NCBI GenBank assembly: GCA_964587045.1
Contig: CAZPJY010000015.1
Location: 1 to 45,139 of the forward strand
Direction of reading: 5' to 3'
Length of the DNA: 45,139 bases
Source: an uncultured Methanosarcinales archaeon
Lineage (GTDB): Archaea; Nanobdellota; Nanobdellia; Woesearchaeales; CAZPJY01
Position numbers and translations under genes: made by a program. This document shows positions 4,085 to 42,918 of the stretch, one piece after another. The notes beneath the pieces are model-generated. The model was not told the origin of the DNA. It ran no database searches and saw only the letters and a program-made list of their open reading frames with translations. Every line of letters begins with the position of its first letter. Position 1 is the stretch's first letter.

Positions 4085-4172
4085 GTTTTCCGGGGAAGCC
4101 GTCTTGCTTATTAAGCTTTCGCATCCGAAAGTAATAAAAAGGGTTGGGACTGTCCAATTGAAAGGTGATATT

Positions 4173-20982: not shown

Positions 20983-22740
20983 ATGGAGCCAAGAGACCTG
21001 AAGGAACTGTATCTCAAGTTCTTCGAGAGCAAAGGCCACAAGAGGATAGAGGGAGCCTCGCTGATCCCCGAGAACGACCCTTCGGTCCTCTTCACTACGG
21101 CAGGCATGCACCCGCTGGTCCCGTTCCTGCTGGGCCAGCCGCACCCACTGGGGAAGAGGGTTGCCAACTGTCAGAAGTGCATCCGCACCGGCGATATCGA
21201 TGAGGTCGGGGACGAGGTCCATTTCTCGTTCTTCGAAATGCTTGGCAACTGGTCCTTTGGCGACTACTTCAAGGAAGAAGCAATCACTTGGAGCTTCGAG
21301 TTCCTGACAGCGGTCCTCAAGATTCCGCTCGATAGGCTTGCCATAACCTGCTTTGCTGGCGACAAGGACGCCCAAAAGGACCAGTTCTCGGCCGAAGTTT
21401 GGATGAGGATGGGAATCCCAAAGGAGCGGATCGCCTTCATGCCCAAGGCCGACAATTGGTGGGGGCCGGCAGGCAAGACCGGGCCCTGCGGCCCTGACAC
21501 GGAGATGTTCGTATGGAACGGAGAGGGCAAGGCCCCCAAGGCCTTCGACCCGAAGGACAGCCGCTGGGTCGAGGTCTGGAATGACGTGTTCATGGAGTAC
21601 AACAAGGCGGCCGACGGCAAGTACCTGCCCCTGAAGCAGAAGAACGTAGACACCGGGATGGGCCTTGAGAGGACAGCAATGATACTCCAGGGAAAGAGGA
21701 ACGTCTATGAGATTAGCACGCTGGACCCGATAGCTAAATGCATACAGGGCCTGGCAGGGCTCAAGAGGCTATCGAAACAGCAGGAGCAGTCAGTGAGGAT
21801 CATCACAGACCACCTGCGCGCGGCTGTTTTCATCCTAGGTGACGAGCGCAGCATCACTCCATCAAACATCGACCAGGGCTACATATTGAGGAGGTTCATC
21901 AGGAGGTCGCTTCGCCACCTCAGACTCCTTGGGATCGACATCTATTCCGGGGACAAGACACCTGAGATAGCCAAGGTGATAATTGACCTGTACAAGAAGG
22001 ACTACCCCCTCCTGGATTCCAAAATGGTAATTGATGAGCTGAAAAAGGAGGAGCAGAGGTTCAAGCGGACCCTCGAGAAGGGACTCAAGAATTTCGAGAG
22101 GCTGGCAAAAGAGGGAGACCTGGATGCCAAATCGGCCTTCCTCCTCTTCCAGTCCTTCGGATTCCCAATCGAGATGATTGAGGAGCTTGCGGGTGAGAAG
22201 GGGCTGAAGGTGGATGTGAAGGGCTTCCAGGAGGAGTACAGGAGGCACCAGGAGCTTTCGCGAGCAGGTGCCGAAAAGAGGTTTAAGGGAGGGCTTGCAG
22301 ACGATTCGGAAATGACCACCCGCCTCCACACGGCGACTCACCTGCTAAACGAGGCCTTGAGGAGGGTGCTCGCTGAGGACATCAGGCAGAAGGGGTCAAA
22401 CATCACTTCTGAGCGTCTGCGTTTTGATTTCAACTTCCCTCGCAAGCTGACGGATGAGGAGAAGAAGAAGGTCGAGGAGACGGTCAACAGGGCCATCAAG
22501 GAAGGCCTGCCTGTTACCCGCAAGAAGATGCCTCTGAAAGAGGCGCTCAAGTCAGGAGCCCAAGCTGAGTTCGGCGCCAAGTACCCTGATCAGGTATGGG
22601 TCTATTCTGTAGGAGACTTCTCAAAGGAGATATGCAACGGCCCGCATGTGGGAAACACCAAGATGCTGGGCACCTTCAAGATCAAAAAGGAAGAGAGTTC
22701 TGCTGCCGGCGTCCGAAGGATCAAGGCGGTCCTTAGCTAA
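20983..22740 (+). CDS. alaS: Alanyl-tRNA synthetase (compact form lacking C-Ala)
   Basis: LFTTAGM, QKCIRTGDI, FFEMLGNWSFGDYFK, GPCGP, DTGMGLER; editing motifs HTATH and CNGPHV; ends GVRRIKA. Confidence 0.97.
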   Translation: MEPRDLKELYLKFFESKGHKRIEGASLIPENDPSVLFTTAGMHPLVPFLLGQPHPLGKRVANCQKCIRTGDIDEVGDEVHFSFFEMLGNWSFGDYFKEEAITWSFEFLTAVLKIPLDRLAITCFAGDKDAQKDQFSAEVWMRMGIPKERIAFMPKADNWWGPAGKTGPCGPDTEMFVWNGEGKAPKAFDPKDSRWVEVWNDVFMEYNKAADGKYLPLKQKNVDTGMGLERTAMILQGKRNVYEISTLDPIAKCIQGLAGLKRLSKQQEQSVRIITDHLRAAVFILGDERSITPSNIDQGYILRRFIRRSLRHLRLLGIDIYSGDKTPEIAKVIIDLYKKDYPLLDSKMVIDELKKEEQRFKRTLEKGLKNFERLAKEGDLDAKSAFLLFQSFGFPIEMIEELAGEKGLKVDVKGFQEEYRRHQELSRAGAEKRFKGGLADDSEMTTRLHTATHLLNEALRRVLAEDIRQKGSNITSERLRFDFNFPRKLTDEEKKKVEETVNRAIKEGLPVTRKKMPLKEALKSGAQAEFGAKYPDQVWVYSVGDFSKEICNGPHVGNTKMLGTFKIKKEESSAAGVRRIKAVLS

Positions 22741-22773: not shown

Positions 22774-23493
22774 ATGAAGCTACTCGACATGCTCCTCAAT
22801 AAGAAACCTGACAACGGGGCCTTGGTCAGGATGCTGGATGATTTCGTGAACCAGGTCTATTGGGGTGAGGACCTTGCCATCGAATCCTCCAAGAGGAACC
22901 TTGAAGACTCTGTGGTCGAGCTCAAAAGGTACGGTTTTCACTCCTCAAACGGCCTGCTGATATCCAACGACGGGTATTTCCTCACCGCCTATCATTGCGT
23001 TAGAAGGCGTGGCAGGATCCACATCCAAACCAGCGACGGCGGTACATATAGGGTAAAAAAGGTTTGTGCGGTAAGCAAATGTTTTGATATCGCCCTAGCG
23101 AAGGCTGACATGCCAGGCCCGACGACCATCAGGAGGTTCAAATTCTACACAGATGAAATCAAGAAGAATGACATGGTGGTAATTCTGACCAAATGGAAAA
23201 AGCTCCTGACTAATGGTGGCTTGGTGATCCAGACCCATAACAATTATTATTCCTTAGATAGTAAAGGGGGCTCGAAGCGCAGGTTTCTGAAGAATCACTT
23301 TTGTATAAATACTACAACAAGGCCCGGTGATTCGGGCGGTGTGGTCGTGACCATCGACGGCCGCCTTATAGGGCTCGTGAGCTGCGGAACGGGCGGTTAT
23401 GACACAACGGCAGTTAAGTTCTTCAATGCCCTGGAGCTGATTTCACATTATAGGGCGTCAAAAGCCAAATGGATTGTTCCTTTTAAGCCTTGA
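22774..23493 (+). CDS. Trypsin-like serine protease
   Basis: Catalytic triad motifs LTAYHC, DIAL, GDSGG. Confidence 0.88.
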   Translation: MKLLDMLLNKKPDNGALVRMLDDFVNQVYWGEDLAIESSKRNLEDSVVELKRYGFHSSNGLLISNDGYFLTAYHCVRRRGRIHIQTSDGGTYRVKKVCAVSKCFDIALAKADMPGPTTIRRFKFYTDEIKKNDMVVILTKWKKLLTNGGLVIQTHNNYYSLDSKGGSKRRFLKNHFCINTTTRPGDSGGVVVTIDGRLIGLVSCGTGGYDTTAVKFFNALELISHYRASKAKWIVPFKP

Positions 23494-23641: not shown

Positions 23642-23651
23642 NNNNNNNNNN
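23642..23651. other. Assembly/scaffold gap (10 N)
   Basis: Run of n characters. Confidence 1.
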
Positions 23652-23696: not shown

Positions 23697-24971
23697 ATGG
23701 CACAAGCAAACACATTAGATGAGTTGAAGAGGAAGTACAAGGCCACCACCAAGAAAAGGGAGGCACAAGAGTACGAAGAGAGCACCGAAAAGAGGTACAG
23801 GGCAGAACAGACTGTCGAGCGGATCAGCAAAGCACCGAGCGAGTCCAAAATCAGCAAGGAAAACCTCGACACTGAAATCGCACGAATCCAGATCCAACTG
23901 ACCCGAATGGCCAAGAACTACGGCACCTTGTTCAACGGTTTCGACGACCTTCTGAAAGGCGAAGGCGTCATGGGAAGATGGGACACCATCAAGTATCAAA
24001 TATATGAGAAAATAGGGATGGAAAAGAAAGCTGACCAGCTCCTTACCAAGAACGTCATCAAGCAAAAGGAGAGCCTGAATACGCTCACAGAGAAGATCGC
24101 TGAGGCGATCAACGAATCTCACCAGAAGGCCGAGAAGGGTAAGGGCCTCGCGCAGACCCTGCTCGAGACAGAGCTTATCCCTCACATGAAGTATCTCAAC
24201 AGGGATCTCGTGGAGGAACTCAGGACCGGCATCACGACAGATGAGGACTACGAGGTTGCCATGAACGAGGTCGAAAAGCTCGACAAGGAGCTCGCAGAGA
24301 TTGACAACGTCCTCGCCAAGTACGAGAAGAAGGTCTTTGCGGCCAAGAGGAAGAAGGACTTCGAGAATATCAGGAAGTTCACCAACGAGATGGACCAGGT
24401 CCTCAACATCAAGGAACAAATCCTTGACGGAAAGCTCGGTGCGGAAGGCGTCGTATCTGAGATTAGAAGAGAAATACTTGAATCCTCAGAGGCAGTCCAG
24501 TCGGCAAAGGGAGCAATCGCCATGTCATGGGTCAACTACCGCGCATTCACAGCAATCGTCGACTCGTTTTCCGAAATGGAGTTCAAGTACCGCCACCTCA
24601 GGGATCATATGGTCCCGGTGTTCAAGCAGCAGTCCCAAGCAGCGGTCATGGGCAACCAGATCCTCGAGATGGGCAAGCAGATTGAAGAAATCTCGTCAGC
24701 ATACAACGCCCTCGGCGAGTACGTGGTCAATTTGACGAACCACATGCTGGACCAGACCTTCGAAATCGTCAAGAAACCCATCTTCGAGGTAAGCAAGGCC
24801 AACGACCTCTTCACCACGATAGATCAGATCTATGCGGCGAAGAACAAGGAAAAGCTGGCCTGGGCGGATCTTCAGCAGAGGCTGGATACGCTTCCCGAAG
24901 TTGTGAAGAAAGCCGGCAAAGTCGAGAATTCGAGTGGCGTCCGCTACAGGTCTCACAGAGAGGCCAACTAA
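23697..24971 (+). CDS. Long coiled-coil protein, first gene of accessory operon
   Basis: GAGG RBS before ATG 23697; helical E/K-rich sequence. Confidence 0.8.
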   Translation: MAQANTLDELKRKYKATTKKREAQEYEESTEKRYRAEQTVERISKAPSESKISKENLDTEIARIQIQLTRMAKNYGTLFNGFDDLLKGEGVMGRWDTIKYQIYEKIGMEKKADQLLTKNVIKQKESLNTLTEKIAEAINESHQKAEKGKGLAQTLLETELIPHMKYLNRDLVEELRTGITTDEDYEVAMNEVEKLDKELAEIDNVLAKYEKKVFAAKRKKDFENIRKFTNEMDQVLNIKEQILDGKLGAEGVVSEIRREILESSEAVQSAKGAIAMSWVNYRAFTAIVDSFSEMEFKYRHLRDHMVPVFKQQSQAAVMGNQILEMGKQIEEISSAYNALGEYVVNLTNHMLDQTFEIVKKPIFEVSKANDLFTTIDQIYAAKNKEKLAWADLQQRLDTLPEVVKKAGKVENSSGVRYRSHREAN

Positions 24972-25000
24972 ATTTTTTTATAATTTTTTGATGATACGAA

Positions 25001-26122
25001 ATGAGCCAAGCTAATTCAGTGACCCTTGAAGGAGAGGAGAAGGAACTCTATCTCAAGAGCCTAGACATAGCGCTCGACGCCATCTCCAACAACTTCAGGT
25101 CCGAAACCCCACGCGACCAGTTGAGCTTCATCAAACGGTACGGCGACGAAAAAAAGTGGGACTGGGACCGGATGCGCCCACTGGACGACTCGTACAAAAA
25201 CCTGGCTTCGATGATTGACGAGGTCAGGGCTCAGTTCGCCTGGTTCTCATGGATATACACAGACGAACCGTCCCAGAACAGGGGGTACTTCAAGAAGATA
25301 GGTGTCCGGACAGACACTGGGCTTCCGCTCTTCTACGATTTCATGAACCTCGAGAAGCTCAAGGTAGATGCCGACAAAAACCTGGGGGAACTGCCGACAG
25401 AAAAAGCATGCCTTGCGGAGCTCGAAAGGATAATCATGACTGACCACTGCAAGAAGAAAGACATCGGCAATGAGATCGGTAAGATCCACGATATCATGAT
25501 GAAGAGGTCATTCATCGAGAAGCTGAAGGATTCGGAGCTCATCGGATGGCGAACCTCAGACTACAAGGTCACGGCAAAGAGGATCATACCCCTCGGAATC
25601 GAGGAGCTATGGAACATCAATGTCATCAGCTACTCAGCGGGTTTCGGTCTGTTCCACATTTATGACATCGACCTCTGGCAGGACATCAGCGATCCTGTGA
25701 TAAAAGAGATGCATGAGGGGATCTACATAGCCCCAACCTTCAAGAACATGCTTTCCTTTTCAGACAGCAACTCAGCCTGGTACATCCTCTCAGATATTGA
25801 CCAGTCCTTCGAGAGCCTTCACCCGGTGCACGCCTCCCGGGCGGTAATAGGTCCGATGGTCCATTCCCACGCCCCGATCAGAGAGCATGACAGGCGCATC
25901 GCGATACTGGACCAGCTGGCAAAAGCTGACCCTCAGGCGAGCTTCCTGCGGGCCACAGTCCAATACTCATTCGCACCTAACCAAACAATCGAGGAGGAGA
26001 CAGTAAGACAGGTCATCCACCAGCGAGACTGGGAGGATGAAATACTGGTCGTACCTCCCAGGCACGCTCAAAAAGTCTCAAGCAGCCTCTTAGGAGAGCG
26101 CATCAGAATACTCGAAAGGTGA
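25001..26122 (+). CDS. Conserved-looking hypothetical protein
   Basis: 373 aa ORF in operon; TGLPLFYD and FESLHP...IGPM motifs. Confidence 0.8.
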   Translation: MSQANSVTLEGEEKELYLKSLDIALDAISNNFRSETPRDQLSFIKRYGDEKKWDWDRMRPLDDSYKNLASMIDEVRAQFAWFSWIYTDEPSQNRGYFKKIGVRTDTGLPLFYDFMNLEKLKVDADKNLGELPTEKACLAELERIIMTDHCKKKDIGNEIGKIHDIMMKRSFIEKLKDSELIGWRTSDYKVTAKRIIPLGIEELWNINVISYSAGFGLFHIYDIDLWQDISDPVIKEMHEGIYIAPTFKNMLSFSDSNSAWYILSDIDQSFESLHPVHASRAVIGPMVHSHAPIREHDRRIAILDQLAKADPQASFLRATVQYSFAPNQTIEEETVRQVIHQRDWEDEILVVPPRHAQKVSSSLLGERIRILER

Positions 26123-26127
26123 GAATC

Positions 26128-27915
26128 ATGGATATGATAATCGACGAACAGGTCGCAGAAAACTTGAAAGCGATCAAGAACATACTCAAGAATCCCAACC
26201 TCCACGACCCCCAAAGGAAAAAGCTGGGCTTCTACAAGGCTTTGGATGACGGCATTAACAACGGGACCAGGCCGGAGAGGGAGCAAATCAGCTACCTCGA
26301 AGCGTTCGAAACAGCGCTAACTGTATTCAAAGAGGCCTCGATCAAGCTAAGGACAGAGATGGACGTTCTGACCAAGGAGAGCAGGTACGAGGCCATAAAG
26401 AAAGGCATCGCAGACCGCATAGAGGTCATCTCAAGCGAAATCGTCGAAAGCCCCCACCTGGCAAAGTACAACCTCAACAATCATGACATAAAGGTCAATC
26501 TCGAAAAGCAGCTGCAAGGGGAGATCATCAATGCAGGAAAGGATGTCACAGACAGCATAATGTTCTCGAACAGGTACGCTCTGGCCTTCGCAGGACATGT
26601 AGGACTTGCTCTGCTAGACGCCGACAGGATGGACACCGACAAGTTGGCGGATCCGGGAAGGAAGTATGACATCAGCAAGGATTCGGACAAGATAGTGTCA
26701 CTGCTTTCGGCAACGGCAGCTGACGACCTCGAACAGATAATCGCAGACAAGAAGAAGGCCAACGAGGAGGTCAACAGCGATACACTCAAAGACTCCCTGC
26801 GCTTCACCTTCACGACCTGGACCAACCAGTTGAACTGGAACACCTTCAAGGACGTGGCAGAGAAGGAAAATATAGAGAAAGAAAAGCTCAAGTACGGCAA
26901 CTTCTCCATCATCAAAGGCGACTTCTCCAGGAAGCACGACCAGCTCGATATCGACAACAAGTTCATGGATGTCCGGAAGAGCGACATAATAGGCGCTGAG
27001 GAGTACGTCAACATCATATGGCAGCACCTACTCAAACTGGGCGGATACAGGCACGAGTTCAGGGACAATGCGGCCAACCCCGCGAAGGTTATTTTCACAT
27101 ACGGTGATCCTGGCTGCGGGAAGACCTTCATCTCCCACGCCCTGATAATGGAGTTCGCTGAGCTCTGCAAGAGGAAGGGATACCCGCTCAAAGCCCTCAC
27201 CCACAGCACCACAGACTACGCGTCATCATACCAAAACGCCACTGCCAACGCCCTCAACGAGCTCGCAGCCGAGATAAACGGGTTCCCGGGGCCTGTGATC
27301 ATGTACGTCGCTGACGCAGACAACATCTTCCTTGCCAGGTCTGATCCGTCGCTCACGGCAGAGCAGCGGCAGACCATGGGAGTCTACTTCAAGATGTTCG
27401 ACGGCACGTTGATCAAGAAGAACGGCAAGTTCCTGGCGATCATGGACGCCAACTACCTGCACAAGATAGACGGCGCCACGCAGAGCAGGCTCTTCGACGA
27501 GACCCTCAAGCTGAAACGATTCGAGAAGGCCGAGGACTTCGCAAAGCTGTTTAGGAAGACCCTTGAGAAGGGCACTGAAGGCACTGGAATCAGCGACAAG
27601 GAATGGCTCAAGATAGGCAAAAATATTCTTGACTCGCCCTTCCAGAACAGGGAGATCGACCACATAGTGAACCAGCTGAGAGGGTCTTACTCTGTTGACG
27701 AATCAATCTTCGACATGACGCACCAGCAGATAATCGACTCAAGGAACGCCCACATGAAATCGATATCATACAAGACGATAATGGGGAAAATCGAAGAGAA
27801 GATCAGCACCCTTGAGGAGATATCAGAGGACTCCCGCACGAAGGAGATACTGAACATCTACGAGAACAAGTGGAAGAAGCCCCAGACTGAGGAGCACGCA
27901 CCGAAAGCAAAATGA
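26128..27915 (+). CDS. AAA+ ATPase with atypical Walker B
   Basis: Walker A GDPGCGKT; Walker B position reads IMYVADAD; AGGTGA RBS before ATG 26128. Confidence 0.85.
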   Translation: MDMIIDEQVAENLKAIKNILKNPNLHDPQRKKLGFYKALDDGINNGTRPEREQISYLEAFETALTVFKEASIKLRTEMDVLTKESRYEAIKKGIADRIEVISSEIVESPHLAKYNLNNHDIKVNLEKQLQGEIINAGKDVTDSIMFSNRYALAFAGHVGLALLDADRMDTDKLADPGRKYDISKDSDKIVSLLSATAADDLEQIIADKKKANEEVNSDTLKDSLRFTFTTWTNQLNWNTFKDVAEKENIEKEKLKYGNFSIIKGDFSRKHDQLDIDNKFMDVRKSDIIGAEEYVNIIWQHLLKLGGYRHEFRDNAANPAKVIFTYGDPGCGKTFISHALIMEFAELCKRKGYPLKALTHSTTDYASSYQNATANALNELAAEINGFPGPVIMYVADADNIFLARSDPSLTAEQRQTMGVYFKMFDGTLIKKNGKFLAIMDANYLHKIDGATQSRLFDETLKLKRFEKAEDFAKLFRKTLEKGTEGTGISDKEWLKIGKNILDSPFQNREIDHIVNQLRGSYSVDESIFDMTHQQIIDSRNAHMKSISYKTIMGKIEEKISTLEEISEDSRTKEILNIYENKWKKPQTEEHAPKAK

Positions 27916-29294
27916 GACTGACGCTTAAGAAACTGATGAAGATACAGGAACTGGAAGAGATTGCTAAAGGCAAGACTGGAACCCTAGACATCTCAAAGCT
28001 GGAATCAGACTTCCTCAAGCTCTCTGAATGCATGACCAAGAGATCGCTACTGGTAACTCCCAAGCGGCTGTACAAGCTGGAGGGCGATGAAAGAGATCAC
28101 ATGAGGAAGGTGATGGAGGCGCTGGGCGAGCCTGGAGATCTTCCCAAGAGCGTCGACTTCTCAGGGGCGTTCGACTACAGGCCGTTCTCCGATAAGCTGA
28201 TAATCTTCTCGCTAGAGCAGGCATTATCTGCAGACCACCTGATTGACACCCGCTCCTACCTCAACCCAATCCTCTTAAAGGTCTATGGGGACGGCAAGAA
28301 CATGATCAGGGATTTCGCCATTAACGAGGCACTTTTTGGATATGTCACCATAACTAGGGGGAGCCTTGAGTTGAAAGATGTCCCATTCTTCCCTGAGAAG
28401 TTTACGGAGGGTCCGTACCAGCTCAGCGTGACGATAGACTCCCCAAACAACAGCGTCATGAAGTACCGGGAAATCAAGGAGTTCCTCGCCCAAGCCTCGA
28501 AGAATCCGTATATACTAAAGGACAAGGAAGAGATGGACAAGGTCGCAAATCATGCAATCGCCCTGCGCGAGGTCCTGGGCTCGCTTTCCAGGTACGATGA
28601 AGTCAAGGACAACGCATTCCAGGCCAACACTGATTCGGTCGTGCTAAGGGATGAGAGTTCAATACTGTACTACCTGCACAATGATAAGGGGAATTTCATG
28701 GTGTACTTCGGGGAGAACCCGTTCTTCGACGAACCCAGGAATCTAACAATACTTAACGGGGAGGATTTCCATCACACTCTCAAGACGCTCATTCAAAACG
28801 AGTTCTATGTGCCGAGCCAGCCAATCCTCGAGCAGCGCATACGCGACCTGAAGCAAACCTTCCGCGACGCAGCGCGTGCCAAGGTGATAACCGACCCAAG
28901 GGAGCATGACGAGTACAAGCATCTGCTCGAGGAGCTCGAGGACACCTTGGATTTTTTCAGGGGCGTCAGGAACGGCGAGGGTAGGAAGAACTACGTAATG
29001 AGCAAGCCGCCAGAGCTCGCAGAGTTCATGGTCTATCCGAACACCGAGGACCCTGTGGTGCACGAGCTCTTACCGAGGATATCATGGAACTCCGCAGTCA
29101 GGCACTACAATGACACCAGCGGTTTCATCAAGTCATTCGAGGATTCTAACGATAAGAAGAGGAAGAAGATGCTACAGGAGGTAGTGTCAAACATCACTTT
29201 CATCAACCAGCAGAACAACGACGTCAACAGCTGGCTGTATGCTAATCACAAGAAGACCTGCGAGAAGGCAGGGCTCACGTTTGAGCTAAGATAA
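27912..29294 (+). CDS. Hypothetical protein (possibly DUF6638-related)
   Basis: 460 aa ORF overlapping the upstream stop (ATGA); family guess is from recalled similarity only. Confidence 0.7.
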   Translation: MRLTLKKLMKIQELEEIAKGKTGTLDISKLESDFLKLSECMTKRSLLVTPKRLYKLEGDERDHMRKVMEALGEPGDLPKSVDFSGAFDYRPFSDKLIIFSLEQALSADHLIDTRSYLNPILLKVYGDGKNMIRDFAINEALFGYVTITRGSLELKDVPFFPEKFTEGPYQLSVTIDSPNNSVMKYREIKEFLAQASKNPYILKDKEEMDKVANHAIALREVLGSLSRYDEVKDNAFQANTDSVVLRDESSILYYLHNDKGNFMVYFGENPFFDEPRNLTILNGEDFHHTLKTLIQNEFYVPSQPILEQRIRDLKQTFRDAARAKVITDPREHDEYKHLLEELEDTLDFFRGVRNGEGRKNYVMSKPPELAEFMVYPNTEDPVVHELLPRISWNSAVRHYNDTSGFIKSFEDSNDKKRKKMLQEVVSNITFINQQNNDVNSWLYANHKKTCEKAGLTFELR

Positions 29295-29307
29295 GGAGGA
29301 AGTCAAA

Positions 29308-31590
29308 ATGAAAAAGAAAACTCTCGAGGATTATATTCAGAACATAAAGAACGGGCAGGACCTGATCAACAGGGGGGTAGTGCCCAAGGATTCGACCAAG
29401 ATGATGGCCATCGTCACCATGGAGAGGCTGAAGGCCATCAGGGACAGGCTAAAGGCAGGTATCGACGAGCACACCCTCGGCACTTGGGTCAACGCGATAG
29501 AGTCCCACCCGTCGAATATAGGACCTGAGATAACCAATCCCAGTCTCATCAGGAACTATGCGAAAAGCGGCATGCGAATCGAAGCCACAAGGGATGTCGG
29601 AGGGGCCAAGATAACAGGCAAGAAGGGACGCATAATAAGCGTCAGTAGAGGAAGCCCACAGCCCTACCAAATAGAGTTCGACAATGCGATAAAGGGCAGG
29701 ACCGGCACCAATCTTGGAGGTAGCGCCAAGTCCGGCCACGGCTGGTCGCTCACCAAGAACGACTTCAAGCTCATACTGGACAAGCCACTTGTGGTCGAGA
29801 GCGGCTACACGCTGGCGGAGGCAGTCATTGCCGACGAGAGGCAAGGCGCCATGGTCAGGTTCTCCAAAGACTATGAGGGAGCGATGTGGGACCGAAACGG
29901 CGATCAGATATATGTCAGCAAAAGGAAAATCCCAAAGGGAACCCTCGGAAAGCTCCTCAACGAGCAGGCCGGCAACCTCCTGATCAAGCTCTCTGAGCCT
30001 GTAAAGGAGATCGGCAAGCAGGAGTACGTGCGGGTCAAGGTAAAAGACGTCTACGACACGCTGGAGGCATCCAACCTCGGTCCGCACCTCCCAAAAAATA
30101 GGGAGCTGGAGATATTCAAGGAGTCGCTGCAGCAATTCCTGCCGACAGCTGTCCTGGATTCAGACACGGCTGAGGAGATAATCGTCGCTCTCCTCGCGGG
30201 AAACAAAGACCTCGGCTTCTACGGACCTTGGGGCGGAGGCAAGTCCTTCACCGGCGAGAACATACTGGAAGTCGCCAAGGAGCAGGGGGTCCTCATCAAG
30301 GAGAAGGACTGCCAGATAAACTGCAACCCTTTCAGCATCTTCGACGAGAACTACGCGAAGCTCGTGCCTCCCTGCTCTGAGTGCATGGAGAAGTACGACA
30401 GGAACTACAAGGAGACCGGAGTGTTCCACCCGCCCAGGCCTGAGGACGTGGAGGTCCAGGTCGTCAAGCTCGACATAGGGTTCGGCATCCAGACTGCTGA
30501 AGGAACGACCAAGATGCACCGCGTCGACATGGTCGGAGTCAAGCTCCCAGATTTCAGCGGGCAGGTTAACAAGGACACAAGAAGCTTGGATGGTTTCAGG
30601 TACGGGTTCCTCCCAAAGAGCAACAACGGCTACTTCCTGATTGAGGAGGCTGACAAGCTGCGCGAGGACACGCACAAGAACCTGCTGCAGGCCCAGAACA
30701 ACCAGAGGGTCAAGCCTGACGAGACCGACTTCTACCTGCCCTCGAACCAGCTCATGATTCTCACCGCCAACGACATAGCTGCCTTCGGCCCGGCGGAAAA
30801 CGATAGGTTCGTCTTCATATACATAGGCTACCCGACAGACCCTGATGTTGCTTATGACATCACGAAGGTCAGCTACCACAAGGAGCCGAGACCCATGATG
30901 GAGCTGGACATCGAGGATCCCCACCTCAAGCAACCTAACGGCACGCGGACGGTCCAGATTCCGGTGATACTGGAAAAGGCCATAGAGGCCTTCTACATCA
31001 ACTTCGACAGCAGCTACAAGGGCGAGGGAAAGGAGGTCATATCCCGCTCGACGAGATCGAAGTTCGACGCCCACGACGCCGCAAGGTCGAAGTGGATGGT
31101 CCATAAGCAGTTCATCGATGAGACTCCTGCTTTCCCGGACGAGGAGTTCGTGATGGAAGGCATAAAGTACGCCATGTGGTGGAGGGTCCAGGACCAGGAC
31201 TGGGAGTCATGCCTCAAGGCCAAGGACGACCTTACCAAGTTCATCTTCAAGGAGTTCCCGAAATACGTCACCGAGGAGGCGAAGAAGTGGTGGTGCGACG
31301 TCAATGAGGACATCGCGACCAAGATACCCCGCTTCCCTGGGATCAAGGAGGCCTACACACAGGAGATCGCCCGTTACCACAGCAATCCTGAGTCAGCTAT
31401 CGACAGCTTCAAGGAGGTCAAACAGGCGTACCTGCACCCACATGACGCCAAGGCCAAGGAGGCCCTGATAAAGAATCCATTCATGGACCTCCTCTTCGAG
31501 AGCCAGCCCCATTTCCAAACTACATCGGTAGAACAGGTGCCGGGGCTCGTTGAGTACCTGATATCATTCCAGCCGAAGATGAACAAATGA
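29308..31590 (+). CDS. MoxR/Mg-chelatase ChlI-like AAA+ ATPase with N-terminal extension
   Basis: GPWGGGKS, CQINCNP...PPCSEC insert, G.L.KSNNG.F.IEEADKL, TAN, DRF. Confidence 0.85.
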   Translation: MKKKTLEDYIQNIKNGQDLINRGVVPKDSTKMMAIVTMERLKAIRDRLKAGIDEHTLGTWVNAIESHPSNIGPEITNPSLIRNYAKSGMRIEATRDVGGAKITGKKGRIISVSRGSPQPYQIEFDNAIKGRTGTNLGGSAKSGHGWSLTKNDFKLILDKPLVVESGYTLAEAVIADERQGAMVRFSKDYEGAMWDRNGDQIYVSKRKIPKGTLGKLLNEQAGNLLIKLSEPVKEIGKQEYVRVKVKDVYDTLEASNLGPHLPKNRELEIFKESLQQFLPTAVLDSDTAEEIIVALLAGNKDLGFYGPWGGGKSFTGENILEVAKEQGVLIKEKDCQINCNPFSIFDENYAKLVPPCSECMEKYDRNYKETGVFHPPRPEDVEVQVVKLDIGFGIQTAEGTTKMHRVDMVGVKLPDFSGQVNKDTRSLDGFRYGFLPKSNNGYFLIEEADKLREDTHKNLLQAQNNQRVKPDETDFYLPSNQLMILTANDIAAFGPAENDRFVFIYIGYPTDPDVAYDITKVSYHKEPRPMMELDIEDPHLKQPNGTRTVQIPVILEKAIEAFYINFDSSYKGEGKEVISRSTRSKFDAHDAARSKWMVHKQFIDETPAFPDEEFVMEGIKYAMWWRVQDQDWESCLKAKDDLTKFIFKEFPKYVTEEAKKWWCDVNEDIATKIPRFPGIKEAYTQEIARYHSNPESAIDSFKEVKQAYLHPHDAKAKEALIKNPFMDLLFESQPHFQTTSVEQVPGLVEYLISFQPKMNK

Positions 31591-32225
31591 TGAAGATCGA
31601 GGATTACCGGCGCGTCGACTGCAAGCTCTACCGCACTCCGCCCCTCGACTTCAGCGAAGTCACAAGGGCGGCCCGGGATGCGCTTCTGGAGGCGTGGAAG
31701 CATGAAATCTCAGCAGGCAGAGCCATCGAAGAGCTTTTAGAGGGCGATCTCGCCAAAGGTCTCGCTGAACAGATCAGGGAAAACATCGAGTTCCAGGCCA
31801 GAAACGAACAGGCACAGTTGGACACGTACTACGGAAAGCAGATCGAAGCGCTGCAGAACGGAAAGGAGAAGAAGATCGGCTCGATCGATGAGAAGTACAA
31901 GAGTCTGCTGGAAGAAAGGGAAAAAAAGATCAGCTCGGCCAAGGAGGCTGTCGAGAAGGTTGAGAGGGGCTACGACGCGAGCACCAGGAAGCTGGGCGAG
32001 CTGCAGGAAGAGCTGGCACGGAAAATCAAGGACATGGGCGGCATCGAGAAGTACAACCAGCTGCAGGAGATAAAGGACATGCTCCTCGACGACCAAAAGA
32101 AGCCGCCGAAGAAGAAGGTCAAAGAGACCATAGACACGCTGATCGTAGCAGACAAGAAGGTGCGCAAGAAGGCTGCCCGCAGCGTATGGCGCCGCATCTG
32201 GGACCACATAAGAGAGTACTGGTAA
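31587..32225 (+). CDS. Coiled-coil protein
   Basis: Translationally coupled; E/K-rich heptads; amphipathic basic C-terminus (RSVWRRIWDHIREYW). Confidence 0.75.
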   Translation: MMKIEDYRRVDCKLYRTPPLDFSEVTRAARDALLEAWKHEISAGRAIEELLEGDLAKGLAEQIRENIEFQARNEQAQLDTYYGKQIEALQNGKEKKIGSIDEKYKSLLEEREKKISSAKEAVEKVERGYDASTRKLGELQEELARKIKDMGGIEKYNQLQEIKDMLLDDQKKPPKKKVKETIDTLIVADKKVRKKAARSVWRRIWDHIREYW

Positions 32226-32227
32226 GA

Positions 32228-33580
32228 ATGGCAGACATCCTAACAAAAAGCCTGGAAGATTTCGTCAACCTGTTCGCCAGGAAGTACAAGAGGAGCAAGC
32301 TCTTCCAGAACAAGGTGCTCAATTACCTGGACATCGGTAAGATCCAAAGGCTCGACTTGGGCGTCTCGAAGAGGTTCCTGAAGGGGAGGTACCAGAAGAA
32401 GACTGATGAGATAATCAGGAACTACGCCACTCTCGTTTACAAAGACCTCAAATCCGACGACGTAATCGAGGAAAAGGCCGAAGAGCTGCAGGAGACCGCA
32501 GACACAAAGGAGGAGCACGAAAAAAAAATCGCAGAGACCAAGGAGGCCATCGAGAAGACCTCGAAGGATCTTGAGGAGTCAAAGGTCACATATGAACAGG
32601 AGAAGCTGCAGACGGAGCAGGGCTTCACCGAACGGATACAAAAATCCGAAAGTCAGAGGCTCGAGAAGAGGCAAGAGATCGCACAAAAAAACGACGTCGA
32701 GGAGATTGTCAAGAAGACATTCAAAGACCACCTGCAGTCGACAGGGCTTGTTAGTTTGAATGAGGCGGGCGAGCTTGCCTTCGACGAGCGCCAGATGATG
32801 GACGCGCTCGAGGACAGCTTCCTCGAGGAGATACTCAACGGAATAAACTCGAAGCAGAGTGGTTTTATGAGGAAACTGAAGCGTCGTTACGACGGCCTGA
32901 TCAACCACTTCGACGAGATAGAGGACCCCAACCAGATGGCTGAGGCCAACTGGACTCTTTCGTATATCAATTCAGTCTCCAGGGGGTACAGGTATCCGAC
33001 CTACCCGTTCATAGTTGTGCCGAAACGAAGCAGGCTTGATAAATGCTACCTGGACACCGCGCTTGCCATCGATTCAAGCGGCAGCATGTGGGATAACCAT
33101 CGCTGGGATGCTGCTGTGAAGGTCACCCTTGCCATGCATTCGCTTATGAGGAAGCTCAACCCCAATAACAAGACTTACCTAGCCCACTACTGTTACAGGC
33201 TTCAAGCCCTGGATACGATAACGTTTTACAAGACCATAAAGCCCGGCGGAGGAACCAGGACCAACGAGGCGCTCGAGTGGCTGCTCGAAACCCTCGACCC
33301 TCACGTCCCTTCACTAGCTATCCTCACAACAGACGGCTCTCCTGACGACGTGGACTTGGCAATAAAGGCAGCTAAAAGATTCAAGGAGAGGCCGCTGACA
33401 CTCCTAAGCATGTTCCTAATCGACGGCAACGCGAGGACTGAGAACATCACAAGGAAGCTCGGGAAGGCTGCCGGCCCGGACACGACGGTCATCCCGGTCA
33501 AGAACTACGAGTTGGCTGCAGGAGTAATACTTAACGTTCCCTCCATGCTCAAGAAGATGTATAACATCACAAATTTTTGA
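32228..33580 (+). CDS. Coiled-coil + VWA domain protein
   Basis: MIDAS motifs AIDSSGSM, GGGT.T..AL, ILTTDGSP. Confidence 0.88.
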   Translation: MADILTKSLEDFVNLFARKYKRSKLFQNKVLNYLDIGKIQRLDLGVSKRFLKGRYQKKTDEIIRNYATLVYKDLKSDDVIEEKAEELQETADTKEEHEKKIAETKEAIEKTSKDLEESKVTYEQEKLQTEQGFTERIQKSESQRLEKRQEIAQKNDVEEIVKKTFKDHLQSTGLVSLNEAGELAFDERQMMDALEDSFLEEILNGINSKQSGFMRKLKRRYDGLINHFDEIEDPNQMAEANWTLSYINSVSRGYRYPTYPFIVVPKRSRLDKCYLDTALAIDSSGSMWDNHRWDAAVKVTLAMHSLMRKLNPNNKTYLAHYCYRLQALDTITFYKTIKPGGGTRTNEALEWLLETLDPHVPSLAILTTDGSPDDVDLAIKAAKRFKERPLTLLSMFLIDGNARTENITRKLGKAAGPDTTVIPVKNYELAAGVILNVPSMLKKMYNITNF

Positions 33581-33582
33581 AA

Positions 33583-34236
33583 ATGAGAATAAAAACACTT
33601 TTAGGAATCGCGCTTGCCGGCCTGCTGGCCGCGTCCCCATTGAAGGCCCAAGACAGCCTGGAAGGCTCGCTGGATAACGCATCCACATACTTCTGGCGGG
33701 GAAAGGAGCTGCTGAAAGGATGGATGGGGCAGCCTTCTGTCACCCTCAACAGGGAGAGCCTGTCGACTGGCCTGTGGGCCAACTACGACTACAAGACAGG
33801 CAAAATAACTGAGATCGACTACAGCCTGGGGACTGAAAGGGAGCTGAGAGACATGGCAGTCGCCGGAGGCTTCACCCTGTACGGCTACCCTGACGACACT
33901 CCCAGCACCTTGGAGGTTAATGCCGGGCTTACTGCTGCATTGCTGCTGAGCCCGTCAATTCGCCTGTATCATGACTTCATGCTCGGGTCTTACGCAGAGC
34001 TATCTGCCAAGCACAGCTTCGGTCTGCTTAGGCTCGAAGTCACTCCTTCAGCCCTGGTAGGATACAACCACTACTACGACTGCGATATCAGCGGATTCTC
34101 GCACTGCGAGCTTTCCCTTAGCTGGGACGTGCCGTTCTTCTTCGGGACGAGCGTCAGCCACAGGCTAGCCCACTCCTTCCCAATCAGTGAAGGCTTCGAC
34201 AGGAAGACATACGTAACAGTCGGGCTAAATCTTTAG
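33583..34236 (+). CDS. Secreted beta-barrel-like protein (TorF/Gcw_chp TIGR02001-like)
   Basis: Signal peptide ending LKA; STYFWRG, QPSV, GLWAN, EIDYSLG; alternating beta strands. Confidence 0.7.
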   Translation: MRIKTLLGIALAGLLAASPLKAQDSLEGSLDNASTYFWRGKELLKGWMGQPSVTLNRESLSTGLWANYDYKTGKITEIDYSLGTERELRDMAVAGGFTLYGYPDDTPSTLEVNAGLTAALLLSPSIRLYHDFMLGSYAELSAKHSFGLLRLEVTPSALVGYNHYYDCDISGFSHCELSLSWDVPFFFGTSVSHRLAHSFPISEGFDRKTYVTVGLNL

Positions 34237-35172: not shown

Positions 35173-36918
35173 ATGAAAAGCCTACCCGTAAGGTCAGAGG
35201 ACATAGATCCGACCAGAATCGTTGATACCTCCAGGTACGACCTATTCAGCCTGGTAGGGGAAGGCAGCTGGGGGATAGTGTGGAAGGCATGGGACAAGCG
35301 CCAGCACCAGGATGTCGCGATAAAGATCATCTCTCCCACGGATGAGGCCGCGGCCCAGATGGCCCTCCGCAACCTGACCTACGCAAAAGCGGTGCAGAAG
35401 GAGACAGGCAAGCTCGCCGCGTGCTCGCACGTAGTCCCCAGAAGGGAAGAGACCTCGCCCGAGGGCGTCCCCTACCTGGTAATGCCATTCTACTCCAGCA
35501 ACTTCGCACAGCATATTGAAACAGAGAGGAAGCAAAACGAAAAAGTGACATACTATGACAAAACCAAGACTGGACTTCTGCTCAAGGACATAATAGACTG
35601 GTTCAGCGACATCGCCGCAGGCATATCAGAGATACACTCAGAATACCACAGGGCGCACGGGGACATCAAGGAGGACAACATCCTCGTGGACAATAAAGGC
35701 AAGTTGCTGCTGGGAGACCTGGGTACCTCAACCTGCGCGACCGTAGGCCGCTCGGTGTCCCCAAGGCACCACATGGGACACGTTCTGACCAGGGACCCGA
35801 GGATGTTTGCAGACGGAGCCCATCCGGATTTCAAGTCTGACTACTTCGCATTCGCAAGCCTCATGTACAAGATGTTTTCCGGCAAGCACCTGCTCGAGGA
35901 AGAGATAGGGGCGGCTGGTCCCAGGGGCATAGACGGCCTGATGCATTCTTTTACTGATGAGGAAGGGGACCTAAACTCTAAATTCCACTCTCTCCTCGAG
36001 GAACGGGTAGGCAAATCTGAGATGCCCGACGAGTTCAAGGACCTGATAATGATGATGTACGGCAGCAAAAGTACTGAGACGCTCGAGCTTTCCCTCTTCG
36101 AAAAATTCGACCTGGACAAGTGCTACAGGAGAGCTGTCAGCGCATACCAAGACAGGATGTCCAGGACCGCGGGCAAAAGGGAGCTGATTAGCAAGATGAA
36201 GAGGTGGGGGCGCAATATCGCATTGGCTACATTCATCGGGGCAAGCATTATTGCAGGATGCCAGTGGATGAATTACCTTTCGCCTCCTGACACCTTCGGC
36301 CGCGAGGAGATAGAGTACCGCCTCACCAAGAGAATGGCAGCCGATGCGGACATCATCCTAGAGACCGAGAAGGTGTACGAGCCTTACATGAAAGCAGAAT
36401 TCGTAGGACCTGTCCCGTTCAAGGATCTGCTGGACTACCACCTCAAGAAGATGGTCCCGCACTCAGTGGTGGATGAGATGATCAAAGTGTGGCTTGAGAC
36501 GTGCAACGAGACTGGCATCGACGCGCTTCCTCGCAACATGAGGCAAAGGGAGATGGCCATGCCGCCGCAGCTCATGGGAGTACCTGAAACCGAATACAAA
36601 GCTGAATACCAGACGCTTAGTGACAGGCTCAAGGATATGCTGCCTGTGTTCCTTGGAGCCTGCCAAAAGGATCCCTTCTCGAAAGTTATCGACCTGGAGG
36701 ACGCTATCGTGCTCTGCCTCGAAGGGCCCCAGAAACTGAGGTACCTGAAGAGCTCGTCTGAGAGCACTGATTTCGGCGCATACAAGGACGCGCGGGATTC
36801 TCACGGCAATCAGATGCTGTATTTTACGTACGCACCGTTCATACAGCAGTTCATTTACAACATCCAGCAAAACGAGATGCTAGGCAAGCTGGTCCGCGTA
36901 AAGGGGGCGGAAGGATGA
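35173..36918 (+). CDS. Hanks-type Ser/Thr protein kinase with TM helix and C-terminal domain
   Basis: GEGSWGIV, VAIK, HGDIKEDN, DLG; TM IALATFIGASIIAGC. Confidence 0.9.
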   Translation: MKSLPVRSEDIDPTRIVDTSRYDLFSLVGEGSWGIVWKAWDKRQHQDVAIKIISPTDEAAAQMALRNLTYAKAVQKETGKLAACSHVVPRREETSPEGVPYLVMPFYSSNFAQHIETERKQNEKVTYYDKTKTGLLLKDIIDWFSDIAAGISEIHSEYHRAHGDIKEDNILVDNKGKLLLGDLGTSTCATVGRSVSPRHHMGHVLTRDPRMFADGAHPDFKSDYFAFASLMYKMFSGKHLLEEEIGAAGPRGIDGLMHSFTDEEGDLNSKFHSLLEERVGKSEMPDEFKDLIMMMYGSKSTETLELSLFEKFDLDKCYRRAVSAYQDRMSRTAGKRELISKMKRWGRNIALATFIGASIIAGCQWMNYLSPPDTFGREEIEYRLTKRMAADADIILETEKVYEPYMKAEFVGPVPFKDLLDYHLKKMVPHSVVDEMIKVWLETCNETGIDALPRNMRQREMAMPPQLMGVPETEYKAEYQTLSDRLKDMLPVFLGACQKDPFSKVIDLEDAIVLCLEGPQKLRYLKSSSESTDFGAYKDARDSHGNQMLYFTYAPFIQQFIYNIQQNEMLGKLVRVKGAEG

Positions 36919-38447
36919 GCATCAAGATAAAGCTTCCAATCAGCGCGTATGATATCCAGAAAGCCTTGGGCAAGGAGACATGGAAAGGCGTCGTCCTAGG
37001 CAGGAAAAAGACCGACGGCTCATCATGGGCCCTGAAGTTCTACGAGCCCAGCGAGACAGCGAGGAAACAGGCAGAGGAGCGCAGCCTCACCCTCGAGGAG
37101 TTCTGGCGAAAGGAGGTGCTGGGGGGACTCAACCGCGGCTACACCAACCTTGCCTTCAACACCTTGGAGAGGGCTGACAACGGCACGGTGTTCCTAGCTG
37201 AGGAATACATCGACCGTTTCCTTTCCGACTATCTGGAAGTCCAGCCGTCCCTAACCCGGGATGAGGTGCTTTCGGTTGCCAAAGGGCTCGCTCAAGGACT
37301 GGCTGACATGCACAGGCACGGCTTCACCCACGGGGACCTGAAGCCTGAGAACATAGGCTACACACTTGACGAAATAGTGAAGATTTCTGATTACGGCACG
37401 TCCAGCGTGTTCTCCAAGGAGCAGAAGAACAGGCGCGACAACATGGGACACCTCCAGACACGCGCCCCTGAGAACTTCAGAGAAGGCAGCAAGCCGACAC
37501 CCAGTAGCGATGTGTGGTCGTTCGGCGCCATGATATACCGGCTCATCACAGGGGAGTATCCCTTCGAAGAAGAGCTGAAGAATAATCCTGACTACTTCAA
37601 AGGCATCAACGAAGGGAGTCTGCAAAAAAACACCATCTCCTCCAGATTGAAGCAACTGCAGCAGAAAGGAACAAGCCAAGAGCTGCAATGCCTAATCGAG
37701 GACTGCCTGCAGCCCGACCCCAGAGCCCGTCCAAGCGACGGAAGCGAAGTGGTCAAGAGGCTAACACAATTGATGCCAAAGGAGCCGTTCATGGTTACGT
37801 TAGGCAAGTCCTTCAAGAGACATCTGGGCTGGCTTGTGCCTGTCGCAGCGCTTTCGCTCTCTTGGTACGCAGCTGCGACGCACGAGCCGAGCAAGCTAGC
37901 CTGGCCCGAAGCGGAGCAGGTGGGGCCAATGGAAATGTCTTCAGAAAAAGAATATCAGGTGAAGCGGGAAAACCTAGGGCAGGAACCGATAACCTGCTTC
38001 ATAGGTTTTGACCAGCTCTCGGTCAAGTGCGCGACCAACGACAAGCGCGTCGCCTACTTACTTCAGACCCATGACCAGGCCTGGCACTACCTCGGGGTAC
38101 TGAGATCCCCGGAGAGGAAAAACAACGCTCAGATAAGCATGTGGTGCACTTACACCCCTCAAGGAGAAAGGTTTCCTGGAGATGGAGGGAACGATTACAG
38201 GGTCATCGCAAAGGCGATCGAGGTCGGCCTATCAGAGGGCATGTCGGAGGACGGAGCGCTGGATCTTGAGGACGCCTTGACCATCTCACGGGTCGGTGTC
38301 AAAACGCTCAGGCAGGCGCAGAAGGCCGCAAACAGCTTTGAATTTATGGATTACATCGCAGCCAGGAACAGCAGCGGAGAATACATCATCCCAGAAAAGG
38401 AGCAGCGGTTCATCAAGACCTGGCTTCGGCTGACCTTCATTGACTAG
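36915..38447 (+). CDS. Second Hanks-type Ser/Thr protein kinase with TM helix and C-terminal domain
   Basis: WALK, HGDLKPEN, DYG, RAPE, SDVWSFG; TM LGWLVPVAALSLSWYAAA. Confidence 0.9.
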   Translation: MSIKIKLPISAYDIQKALGKETWKGVVLGRKKTDGSSWALKFYEPSETARKQAEERSLTLEEFWRKEVLGGLNRGYTNLAFNTLERADNGTVFLAEEYIDRFLSDYLEVQPSLTRDEVLSVAKGLAQGLADMHRHGFTHGDLKPENIGYTLDEIVKISDYGTSSVFSKEQKNRRDNMGHLQTRAPENFREGSKPTPSSDVWSFGAMIYRLITGEYPFEEELKNNPDYFKGINEGSLQKNTISSRLKQLQQKGTSQELQCLIEDCLQPDPRARPSDGSEVVKRLTQLMPKEPFMVTLGKSFKRHLGWLVPVAALSLSWYAAATHEPSKLAWPEAEQVGPMEMSSEKEYQVKRENLGQEPITCFIGFDQLSVKCATNDKRVAYLLQTHDQAWHYLGVLRSPERKNNAQISMWCTYTPQGERFPGDGGNDYRVIAKAIEVGLSEGMSEDGALDLEDALTISRVGVKTLRQAQKAANSFEFMDYIAARNSSGEYIIPEKEQRFIKTWLRLTFID

Positions 38448-40928: not shown

Positions 40929-40935
40929 GGCGAAG

Positions 40936-42732: not shown

Positions 42733-42733
42733 G

Positions 42734-42916: not shown

Positions 42917-42918
42917 GG

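Follow-up and report, generated by a model that had tools for sequence, protein, structure and literature searches.

The window analyzed here is a 45,139-nucleotide (nt) stretch of contig CAZPJY010000015.1 (assembly GCA_964587045.1) from an uncultured archaeon of the Woesearchaeales, and the subject of this report is a seven-gene cluster at positions 23697-33580 within it. The DNA is archaeal: the window encodes an aIF5B-type GTPase, an ABCE1-type Fer4/ABC protein, Trm1, a HerA-type ATPase and a PUA protein. The host genome measures 1.6 Mb and has a completeness score of 100%. The cluster comprises seven co-directional open reading frames (ORFs) on the + strand, of 424, 373, 598, 460, 760, 212 and 464 amino acids (aa), spaced by 29, -4, -4, 13, -4 and -40 nt, which agrees with the overlapping or near-adjacent gene layout described in a first-pass annotation made from the letters of the window. 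Each of the seven genes has orthologues at 23-50% identity in all 11 other non-redundant loci that were collected, and the ORFs are therefore real genes rather than chance frames.

Gene 1 (23697..24971, +; 424 aa) encodes an all-helical, coiled-coil-like protein without a recognisable family. Its length is counted from the ATG at 23697, the start picked in the first-pass annotation, and the open frame extends further back to 23634, spanning a run of ten Ns at 23642-23651. Gene 2 (25001..26122, +; 373 aa) specifies an 'LHP..GP-motif' protein with a helical N-terminal half and a beta-rich C-terminal half, gene 3 (26119..27915, +; 598 aa) a predicted classical-clade AAA ATPase carrying an unassigned N-domain of about 300 aa, and gene 4 (27912..29294, +; 460 aa) a divergent protein assigned to the DUF6638 superfamily. 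They are followed by gene 5 (29308..31590, +; 760 aa), for a predicted ChlI/BchI-like AAA+ ATPase extended at both termini, gene 6 (31587..32225, +; 212 aa), whose product combines a conserved N-domain of about 75 aa with a coiled coil, a variable linker and a short hydrophobic/basic tail, and gene 7 (32186..33580, +; 464 aa), which encodes a conserved N-region, a coiled coil and a predicted C-terminal VWA domain. Hydropathy analysis found no transmembrane (TM)-like segment in any of the seven proteins. A scan for sigma-70 promoters and intrinsic terminators, with models ill-suited to archaea, gave chance-level results. A TTTATAT stretch lies near position 23553, upstream of gene 1.

To follow the cluster beyond the window, genome and metagenome contigs were scanned with a gene-4 profile, which returned 10 + 16 loci before the removal of duplicates. 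Twelve non-redundant complete clusters, window included, carry all seven genes (12/12 with enough flank), and the shorter contigs hold consistent parts of the cluster, with the exception of locus L066, discussed below. We refer to the seven-gene form as type A, and to relatives in the same archaeal order with other downstream genes as sister cassettes. Two arrangements were found: the order 1234567 in five loci (the window, L044, L049, L057 and L061) and the order 5671234 in the other seven (L048, L055, L053, L047, L052, L058 and L060). The junction between genes 4 and 5 in the former spans -8 to 13 nt; that between genes 7 and 1 in the latter spans 63-188 nt, and 1375 nt in L060 (gap 3762-5138). 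In a tree of gene 3, the sole strongly supported pair (100/100) joins L047, of order 5671234, with L049, of order 1234567, the remaining branches not being separated. Since the members of this pair differ in order, at least two order changes must have occurred, and the adjacency in 12 of 12 loci means that the two blocks stayed together through repeated rearrangement. All-against-all clustering of ORFs yielded these seven families as the only ones common to all 12 loci; the other groups were antisense shadows or pairs. The seven genes are thus one conserved unit of two modules, genes 1-4 (module 1) and genes 5-7 (module 2), set side by side in either order. Whether the genes co-occur elsewhere, on which the first-pass annotation had made its proposal depend, is answered by their joint recurrence in these 12 loci.

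The genome surveys drew on samples of one phylum (401 genomes), and negative results hold for the genomes searched. A first survey of 41 relatives revealed one full-length homologue of gene 5, in genome G004, where all seven genes are present in the same order. In the profile search of the phylum, 5 of the 401 genomes (G000, G004, G197, G411 and G245) gave a full-length match to gene 5; they represent five different families. A gene-4 profile applied to the same 401 genomes gave strong matches (E<=8e-144) in exactly those five, plus seven weaker ones; one of the weaker matches is in the unpublished genome G263, on which no claim is built here. The modules therefore co-occur one-to-one (5/5), neither type-A module being found alone in the 401 genomes. 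Cluster-bearing relatives are labelled Woesearchaeota or Nanoarchaeota, except for three bins labelled Methanosarcinales or Acidobacteriota, of which one, G245, is placed by genome classification in the window's own order.

The family profile of gene 5 matched the Mg-chelatase subunit BchI best among solved structures (1g8p, 4.2e-12), followed by ChlI, Lon and MCM. Across 33 family members, Pfam searches recovered Mg_chelatase (PF01078) in 29 (best 2e-9), AAA_5 in 24, AAA_PrkA in 21 (best 4.1e-10) and AAA_3 (PF07726) in 4 (best 2.9e-4), with bpMoxR matching weakly in 2; the window copy itself matched no Pfam family at E<=0.01. These profile matches identify gene 5 as a predicted ATPase of the ChlI/BchI type. 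The Walker A motif GPWGGGKS (residues 306-313; 30223..30246, +) has G306, G311 and K312 invariant in the 33 sequences, and the Walker B pair, Asp-Glu in the consensus, is E446-E447 in the window copy. N488, D499, R500 and R583 are likewise invariant; we read this set as the putative sensor-1 Asn (N488) and arginine-finger positions (R500 among them). Between Walker A and Walker B, four cysteines (C335, C339, C356 and C359; 30310..30384, +), each at least 90% conserved in the 33 sequences, form an insert that may be read as a putative zinc ribbon. The protein further contains about 290 extra N-terminal and about 240 extra C-terminal residues. Within the N-terminal extension lies an SH3-like region (approximately residues 85-165; 29560..29802, +), where profile positions of about 90-170 match repeats in unrelated SH3_12 proteins; an SH3_12 match was found in 3 of the 33 family members.

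Searches with single gene-5 proteins returned the query itself or nothing, and relatives surfaced with profiles. Against 1.84 billion representative proteins, the gene-5 profile gave 116 matches at E<=1e-3; 44 of them had E<=3.5e-112, and 42 of these 44 are 658-863 aa long. A second tier consists of proteins of about 450-560 aa that share the ATPase core and part of the C-terminus only, match AAA_PrkA, Mg_chelatase, Sigma54_activat and AAA_5 in Pfam, and in some cases are named 'Mg-chelatase subunit ChlI' or 'ATP-binding protein [Thermoplasmata archaeon]'. Within the 401 genomes, 60 other matches to the profile (E<=1e-8) are MoxR-like proteins of about 300-400 aa covering part of the ATPase core, and the ordinary MoxR-like genes of the phylum, of about 340 aa, match only at profile positions of about 440-535 (1e-9 to 1e-13). 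The PrkA AAA domain is linked with a VWA-like neighbour, YeaH. The PrkA/YeaG-YeaH pair resembles module 2 in the AAA_PrkA matches of the gene-5 relatives and in the long insert that follows Walker A in the PrkA domain as well. It differs in that neither a match to the PrkA C-terminal domain nor a SpoVR-like gene was found here, and in that the window copy of gene 5 lacks an AAA_PrkA match.

In gene 6, C12, L14, R16, P18, A36 and W37 are invariant among 12 orthologues, and several of these end in the tail 'KKVWxVLNYKLW'. The window copy of gene 7 matched the Pfam VWA family at 3.8e-4 (21.2 bits, under the cut-off of 23.8), while its 12 orthologues include five with a VWA_2 match (best 6e-8) and four with a VWA match at E<=0.01; the gene-7 profile matched VWA domains in the PDB at 1.3e-4 to 3e-3. 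The DxSxS signature of the metal-ion-dependent adhesion site (MIDAS; D296, S298 and S300; 33071..33085, +) is complemented downstream by T357 and D383, and all five residues are invariant in 12 of 12 orthologues. Gene 7 is accordingly predicted to encode a VWA protein with a complete MIDAS site, in which a coiled coil of about 150 aa precedes the VWA domain and the latter ends the protein. The profile match to BchI, the invariant MIDAS residues and the VWA matches bear out the earlier description of genes 5-7 as a ChlI/MoxR-type ATPase with a coiled-coil protein and a VWA protein.

Gene 3 matched the Pfam AAA family PF00004 at 2.2e-9 (38.3 bits, cut-off 21.2) over residues 327-461, and its profile found Afg2, VAT, Cdc48, Msp1 and katanin in the PDB at 1e-8 to 1e-5, all of which points to a classical-clade AAA protein. 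With the P-loop GPWGGGKS and the Mg_chelatase family of gene 5, the count of two AAA+ ATPases in the first-pass annotation stands. In the Walker A motif GDPGCGKT (residues 329-336; 27103..27126, +), all 14 sequences agree at G329, P331, G332, G334, K335 and T336. The predicted Walker B motif, YVADAD (residues 396-401; 27304..27321, +), is non-canonical, with A398-D399 aligned by HMMER to the Asp-Glu of Afg2; it reads (A/S)D(A/V)D in 14 of 14 type-A copies and DD(I/L/V)D in those of sister cassettes and bacteria. Among the candidate sensor-1 Asn and second-region-of-homology arginine positions, N445 and R457 do not vary; at the first Arg position, type A has Lys or Gln-Ser (ATKSR), and the sister and bacterial proteins have Arg. 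Gene 3 gave no match to the MIT or Cdc48-N families. For its N-domain, the ESM Atlas offered a single lead, TRIP13_N, with a score of 0.76.

Genes 1, 2 and 4 have no family match in Pfam, NCBIfam or PADLOC, and PDB sequence profiles gave nothing meaningful for them; for the cluster as a whole, NCBIfam matches were at the level of the AAA domain only. The alignment of gene 1 comprises 14 orthologues, none of which showed a consistent Pfam match (14/14), and no sequence relative was found in the PDB at E<=0.1. In gene 2, H274, P275, H277, G284 and P285 are invariant in 22 sequences, the second His of the HPxH motif being replaced by Glu in the Vibrio homologue described below. AlphaFold2 models built from 22-sequence alignments were confident for both gene 2 (predicted local distance difference test, pLDDT, 89.8; predicted template modelling score, pTM, 0.89) and gene 4 (pLDDT 89.2, pTM 0.84). 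Foldseek found no match at E<=1e-3 for the gene-2 model in the PDB or BFVD, nor for the gene-4 model in the PDB. Rows for levivirus maturation protein appeared in BFVD with gene 2 at E 3e-3 and were rejected as noise, the TM-score being about 0.08. VIA-align placed the gene-2 model closest to helical hairpins (best Z 5.7-6.3) and gave weak T-fold rows for residues of about 200-348 (Z 4-4.6, under its noise guide); for gene 4 it found a helical hairpin only, at residues 300-355 (Z<=7.5). These fold searches used whole models, and their negative results therefore apply to the whole proteins rather than to individual domains. The ESM Atlas held no usable match for gene 4. A word-indexed database added 7 relatives of gene 4 and 10 of gene 2, all of them unnamed or 'hypothetical' and without Pfam domains.

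The kinship of genes 1-4 emerged through intermediates. Weak relatives of the gene-4 profile in other genomes of the order led to the sister clusters, in which a helical protein of about 370 aa, a gene-2-like protein of about 370 aa, an AAA protein of 616-694 aa and a DUF6638 protein of about 430 aa are followed by proteins of about 290 and about 600 aa (genomes G325, G225, G340, G209 and G008). The DUF6638 proteins of these five genomes all match PF20343 above its cut-off (1.4e-32 in G325, 4.3e-23 in G225). PF20343 was matched in 8 of the 401 genomes, 6 of them above cut-off, and in none of the five type-A genomes; gene 4 itself gave no direct match at E<=10 in the window and G004 copies, and none was found across the whole genome G000. 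Profile-profile comparison by hhalign nevertheless aligned gene 4 with DUF6638-bearing archaeal proteins over 357 columns (probability 97.6%, E 4.6e-12) and gene 2 with the second gene of the sister cassettes (probability 96.8%, E 2.1e-10). The gene-2 hidden Markov model (HMM) also matched that second gene directly, at 1.7e-7 in G325 and at 8.7e-17 in the variant of G216.

The cassette extends into bacteria. Querying a plasmid collection by tblastn with a DUF6638 protein brought up 10 records, from Sinorhizobium, Shinella, Rhizobium and Vibrio, and the same four genes occur in order on Vibrio parahaemolyticus plasmid NZ_CP062152.1 and in Sinorhizobium meliloti CP090106.1. In the latter, the DUF6638 gene holds the same position save for an insertion sequence (IS), and a DUF2333 protein comes next. 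The gene-2 and gene-3 HMMs match the Vibrio and Sinorhizobium cassettes (5e-13 and 2e-10; 6e-26 and 4e-23), and the gene directly after the AAA gene is gene 4 or its DUF6638 counterpart in the 12 type-A loci, the sister loci and Vibrio alike. The bacterial AAA proteins carry DD(I/V)D at Walker B. No DUF6638 relative was found in the phage collection, and DUF6638 was not mentioned in the literature searched; for DUF2333, a paper about a type VI secretion system came up and was set aside by its title as unrelated.

On the basis of these profile alignments and the shared gene order, genes 1-4 are best described as a predicted divergent copy of an uncharacterised cassette of bacteria and archaea that encodes a helical protein, an LHP..GP protein, a classical AAA ATPase and a DUF6638 protein. 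The likeness to a bacterial DUF6638 cluster that the first-pass annotation had proposed for the first four genes thus stands for genes 2-4, by way of intermediates; it was not detected for gene 1, for which hhalign gave a probability of 0.3% against the sister helical gene, nor does it extend to a direct PF20343 match for gene 4, which has diverged too far. Besides these two genes, type A departs from the known cassettes in its Walker B sequence and in its partner. The downstream partner differs between versions of the cassette, module 2 being replaced by other genes in the sister cassettes: type A has a triad of AAA+, coiled-coil and VWA proteins where the others have DUF2333 or the proteins of about 290 and 600 aa, some of them with a TM-like segment. 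A TM-like N-terminal segment was detected in 2 of 4 proteins of about 600 aa.

Two further relatives of the cassette were observed. At L070 (G216:C1, 3114-9441, -), a divergent core cassette is directly followed by ten tandem paralogues of 195-247 aa. They share the C-terminal motif 'DGHVDGIIELG..EY..PE', contain Thr/Pro-rich linkers and begin like proteins with a signal peptide or like lipoproteins, and two AAA_14 ATPase genes come after them. L071 (G332:C91, 7992-9938, -), from a genome of the same taxonomic class, encodes a 648-aa protein that matches the gene-4 profile in two stretches (E 2.8e-23) and DUF6638 weakly. The neighbouring ORFs had no match to the gene-3 HMM, and the locus may represent a further variant of the cassette.

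Our preferred interpretation, held with less than even confidence, is that the seven genes build a soluble two-motor protein-remodelling complex from two modules, soluble because none of their products has a TM-like segment. In AAA+/VWA pairs, a client is bound at the MIDAS through one of its acidic residues and is remodelled by the ATPase ring. Module 2 would be the client-engaging part of the complex on this precedent: as in BchI-BchD, CbbQ-CbbO, NorQ-NorD and Rea1, the MIDAS of gene 7 would hold its target by an acidic residue, and the ChlI-like ring of gene 5 would pull on that target at the expense of ATP. A stalk could form by pairing of the gene-6 and gene-7 coiled coils. The AAA ATPase of gene 3 would have the helical protein or a client as its substrate, with proteins 2 and 4 as possible adaptors, and gene 3 together with proteins 1, 2 and 4 would form a second remodelling stage. 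Module 2 might take over in the cytoplasm the anchoring or client engagement that membrane-linked partners provide elsewhere. Type A shares with the established pairs (BchI-BchD, CbbQ-CbbO, NorQ-NorD, RavA-ViaA and Rea1/midasin) a ChlI/MoxR-kind ATPase gene adjoining a gene for a VWA protein with complete MIDAS. It is unlike them in the SH3-like N-extension, four-Cys insert and C-extension of gene 5, in the long coiled coil of gene 7, in the separate coiled-coil protein that is always present, and in the lack of linkage to a known client gene.

Several observations weigh against such a complex. No client gene was found linked to the cluster. The canonical Walker B Asp-Glu pair is missing from gene 3, and with it the expected catalytic Glu, so that its product may bind ATP without hydrolysing it, or may serve as a switch and not as a motor. 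No detectable homology links gene 1 to the sister helical gene; searches gave no match to Snf7, PspA or PspA_IM30 and one weak TelA match among 25 proteins. The sister proteins of about 290 aa showed no membrane nature at the hydropathy threshold used. The distribution is patchy, the five type-A genomes among the 401 being spread over five families. At L066 (9983-10792, +), a lone open frame corresponds to the C-terminal half of gene 4 (HMM positions 203-463, E 1.6e-98), the other six genes of the system were not found within 10 kb, and the fragment looks like a relic of a lost cluster. The patchiness and this fragment are as compatible with a dispensable accessory role as with a housekeeping one.

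Among the other explanations, a nucleoside-triphosphate-dependent conflict system is one that we consider unlikely. Directed against viruses or mobile elements, it would consist of a conserved core and a swappable module; assembly or remodelling, set off by an infection signal, would halt either the invader or the cell. The scattered occurrence in five families would suit it, as would the coexistence of type A (G197) and the sister type (G325) within family f75, the replacement of the partner module between versions, the decayed remnant at L066 and the IS200-type transposase (158-607) directly upstream of gene 5 in L060. According to Kaur, Burroughs, Iyer and Aravind (2020, PMC7159879), MoxR-vWA pairs with a variable third component are conflict systems, and they share with type A the combination of AAA+ and vWA proteins with further conserved components in a mobile-looking neighbourhood. 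The third component of the systems described there is VMAP, iSTAND, FtsH or a beta-propeller, none of which was found in the seven proteins (Pfam, E<=0.01), and effectors are fused C-terminally to the vWA domain, whereas the vWA domain of gene 7 is itself C-terminal with nothing fused after it and the AAA+ protein is nearer ChlI than MoxR. Neither a nuclease, protease or TIR domain nor any other effector domain was detected in the seven proteins by Pfam, and the defence role that the first-pass annotation had allowed for gained no family from PADLOC beyond weak AAA-domain matches (TRIP13 1.3e-4, IetA 2.3e-4), with nothing for the other genes. IMG/VR viral contigs held no relative of gene 4 or gene 5 (two profiles), PHROGs gave one AAA-domain match only, and the flanks of the cluster are metabolic or housekeeping, with AbiEii in 1 of 11 loci. 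We also regard as doubtful a membrane or envelope remodelling machine of the Vps4/ESCRT-III or PspA kind, in which the helical protein would polymerise on the membrane, the AAA ATPase recycle it and module 2 serve as a tether. Like Vps4/CdvC-ESCRT-III and Cdc48/VAT with adaptors, type A sets a classical AAA ATPase beside an all-helical protein, and Afg2, VAT, Cdc48 and Msp1 are the best solved relatives of gene 3; the Msp1 and katanin-type proteins among them, the TM-like segments of proteins after DUF6638 in sister cassettes and the short hydrophobic/basic tail of gene 6 in several orthologues could all be taken as signs of membrane work. Unlike those systems, gene 3 has a single AAA domain, a non-canonical Walker B and no MIT or Cdc48-N match, and gene 1 no Snf7 or PspA match. 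Since gene 1 also lacks detectable homology to the sister helical gene and TelA, the analogy rests on position and composition. All seven proteins are without TM-like segments, and membrane-linked partners are just what type A lacks.

That module 2 is a chelatase or metallocentre-maturation unit of the BchI-BchD, CobS-CobT, NorQ-NorD or CoxD-CoxE type, inserting a metal or cofactor into a module-1 or cellular protein, seems quite improbable to us, even with BchI as the best solved relative of gene 5. An AAA+ ATPase with a VWA/MIDAS protein is a chelatase-type pair, and the invariant HPxH of gene 2 lies in a beta domain weakly like T-fold enzymes. Those T-fold rows stay under the noise guide, however, and the second His of the motif is not kept in Vibrio. 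In the Mg and Co chelatases (ChlI-ChlD-ChlH and CobS-CobT-CobN), a large subunit completes the set, whereas the 12 loci share neither a ChlH/CobN-like large-subunit gene nor a metalloenzyme gene, inside the cluster or next to it, and gene 7 has a coiled coil at the place of the AAA-like N-terminal domain of BchD/ChlD. Finally, the two modules could be independent systems that are merely adjacent, without joint function, which we hold to be very improbable. The order swaps and the wider junction between genes 7 and 1, which means that module 1 may have its own promoter, would allow for it; the adjacency in every locus in spite of at least two order changes, the one-to-one co-occurrence in all five genomes and the tight junction between genes 4 and 5 in the 1234567 order argue against it.

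Returning to the preferred reading of a soluble two-motor complex, a bolder proposal, in which we have low confidence, is that type A is a new cytoplasmic machine in which the DUF6638 cassette, widespread in bacteria, has swapped its membrane-linked partners for a ChlI-like ring and a MIDAS gripper. If true, this would be the first version of the cassette with a recognisable client-engaging part, and the client and function of the cassette could become findable through gene 7. The seven-gene form shows that the downstream partner is exchangeable and that one lineage uses an AAA+/VWA-MIDAS unit in this place; as the mode of action of such units is understood (gripping an acidic residue and pulling), the gene-7 MIDAS would offer a handle on the target of the cassette, which is also present in culturable bacteria (Sinorhizobium and Vibrio). 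A lineage-specific role in host-dependent archaea, such as conflict with viruses or the handling of host-derived proteins, would then be possible. Genes 2 and 4 add two proteins with confidently predicted folds and no solved-structure match in the searches made. Should type A be only a lineage-specific accessory complex, it would still be a well-defined target of moderate interest. No Woesearchaeota system combining AAA and von Willebrand proteins was found in the literature searched.

The genomic surroundings of the cluster are mostly metabolic or housekeeping, a cellular rather than a mobile context. In the 11 other loci, the flanking genes encode enolase, phosphoglycerate mutase, enzymes of purine and lysine biosynthesis, tRNA synthetases, NUDIX proteins and transporters; the AbiEii gene mentioned above lies 4 kb from the cluster in L052. 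In the window, two tandem Ser/Thr protein kinase genes (35173-38447, +) are followed by an AAA ATPase gene and three Pup-ligase-family genes (39483-45139, +). The kinases and Pup system that the first-pass annotation had placed near the cluster are thus present, but this neighbourhood is not conserved: beside the other clusters, one kinase gene was found, 4.6 kb away in L048, and Pup genes accompany none of them.

Downstream of gene 7, an eighth ORF (33577..34236, +; 219 aa) overlaps its stop by 4 nt and encodes a protein with a signal-peptide-like N-terminus and a beta-rich look, which is odd in an archaeon without an outer membrane. It has no Pfam match and no homologue beside the other clusters, and is probably not part of the system. 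In two of the five loci with order 1234567, a shared gene for a soluble helical protein of about 216-239 aa, unrelated to the eighth ORF, directly follows gene 7 (L044 15830-16480 and L049 16502-17221). On the other side of the cluster, a gene for a trypsin-like peptidase (22774-23493, +; PF13365, 2e-13) lies directly upstream of gene 1 in the window; it is not found beside the other 11 clusters. Further upstream, an alanyl-tRNA synthetase ORF (20983-22740, +) encodes 585 aa with tRNA-synt_2c and tRNA_SAD domains, and L053 contains a 592-aa homologue at 58% identity; it looks as if a short or split alanyl-tRNA synthetase has been kept in the lineage.

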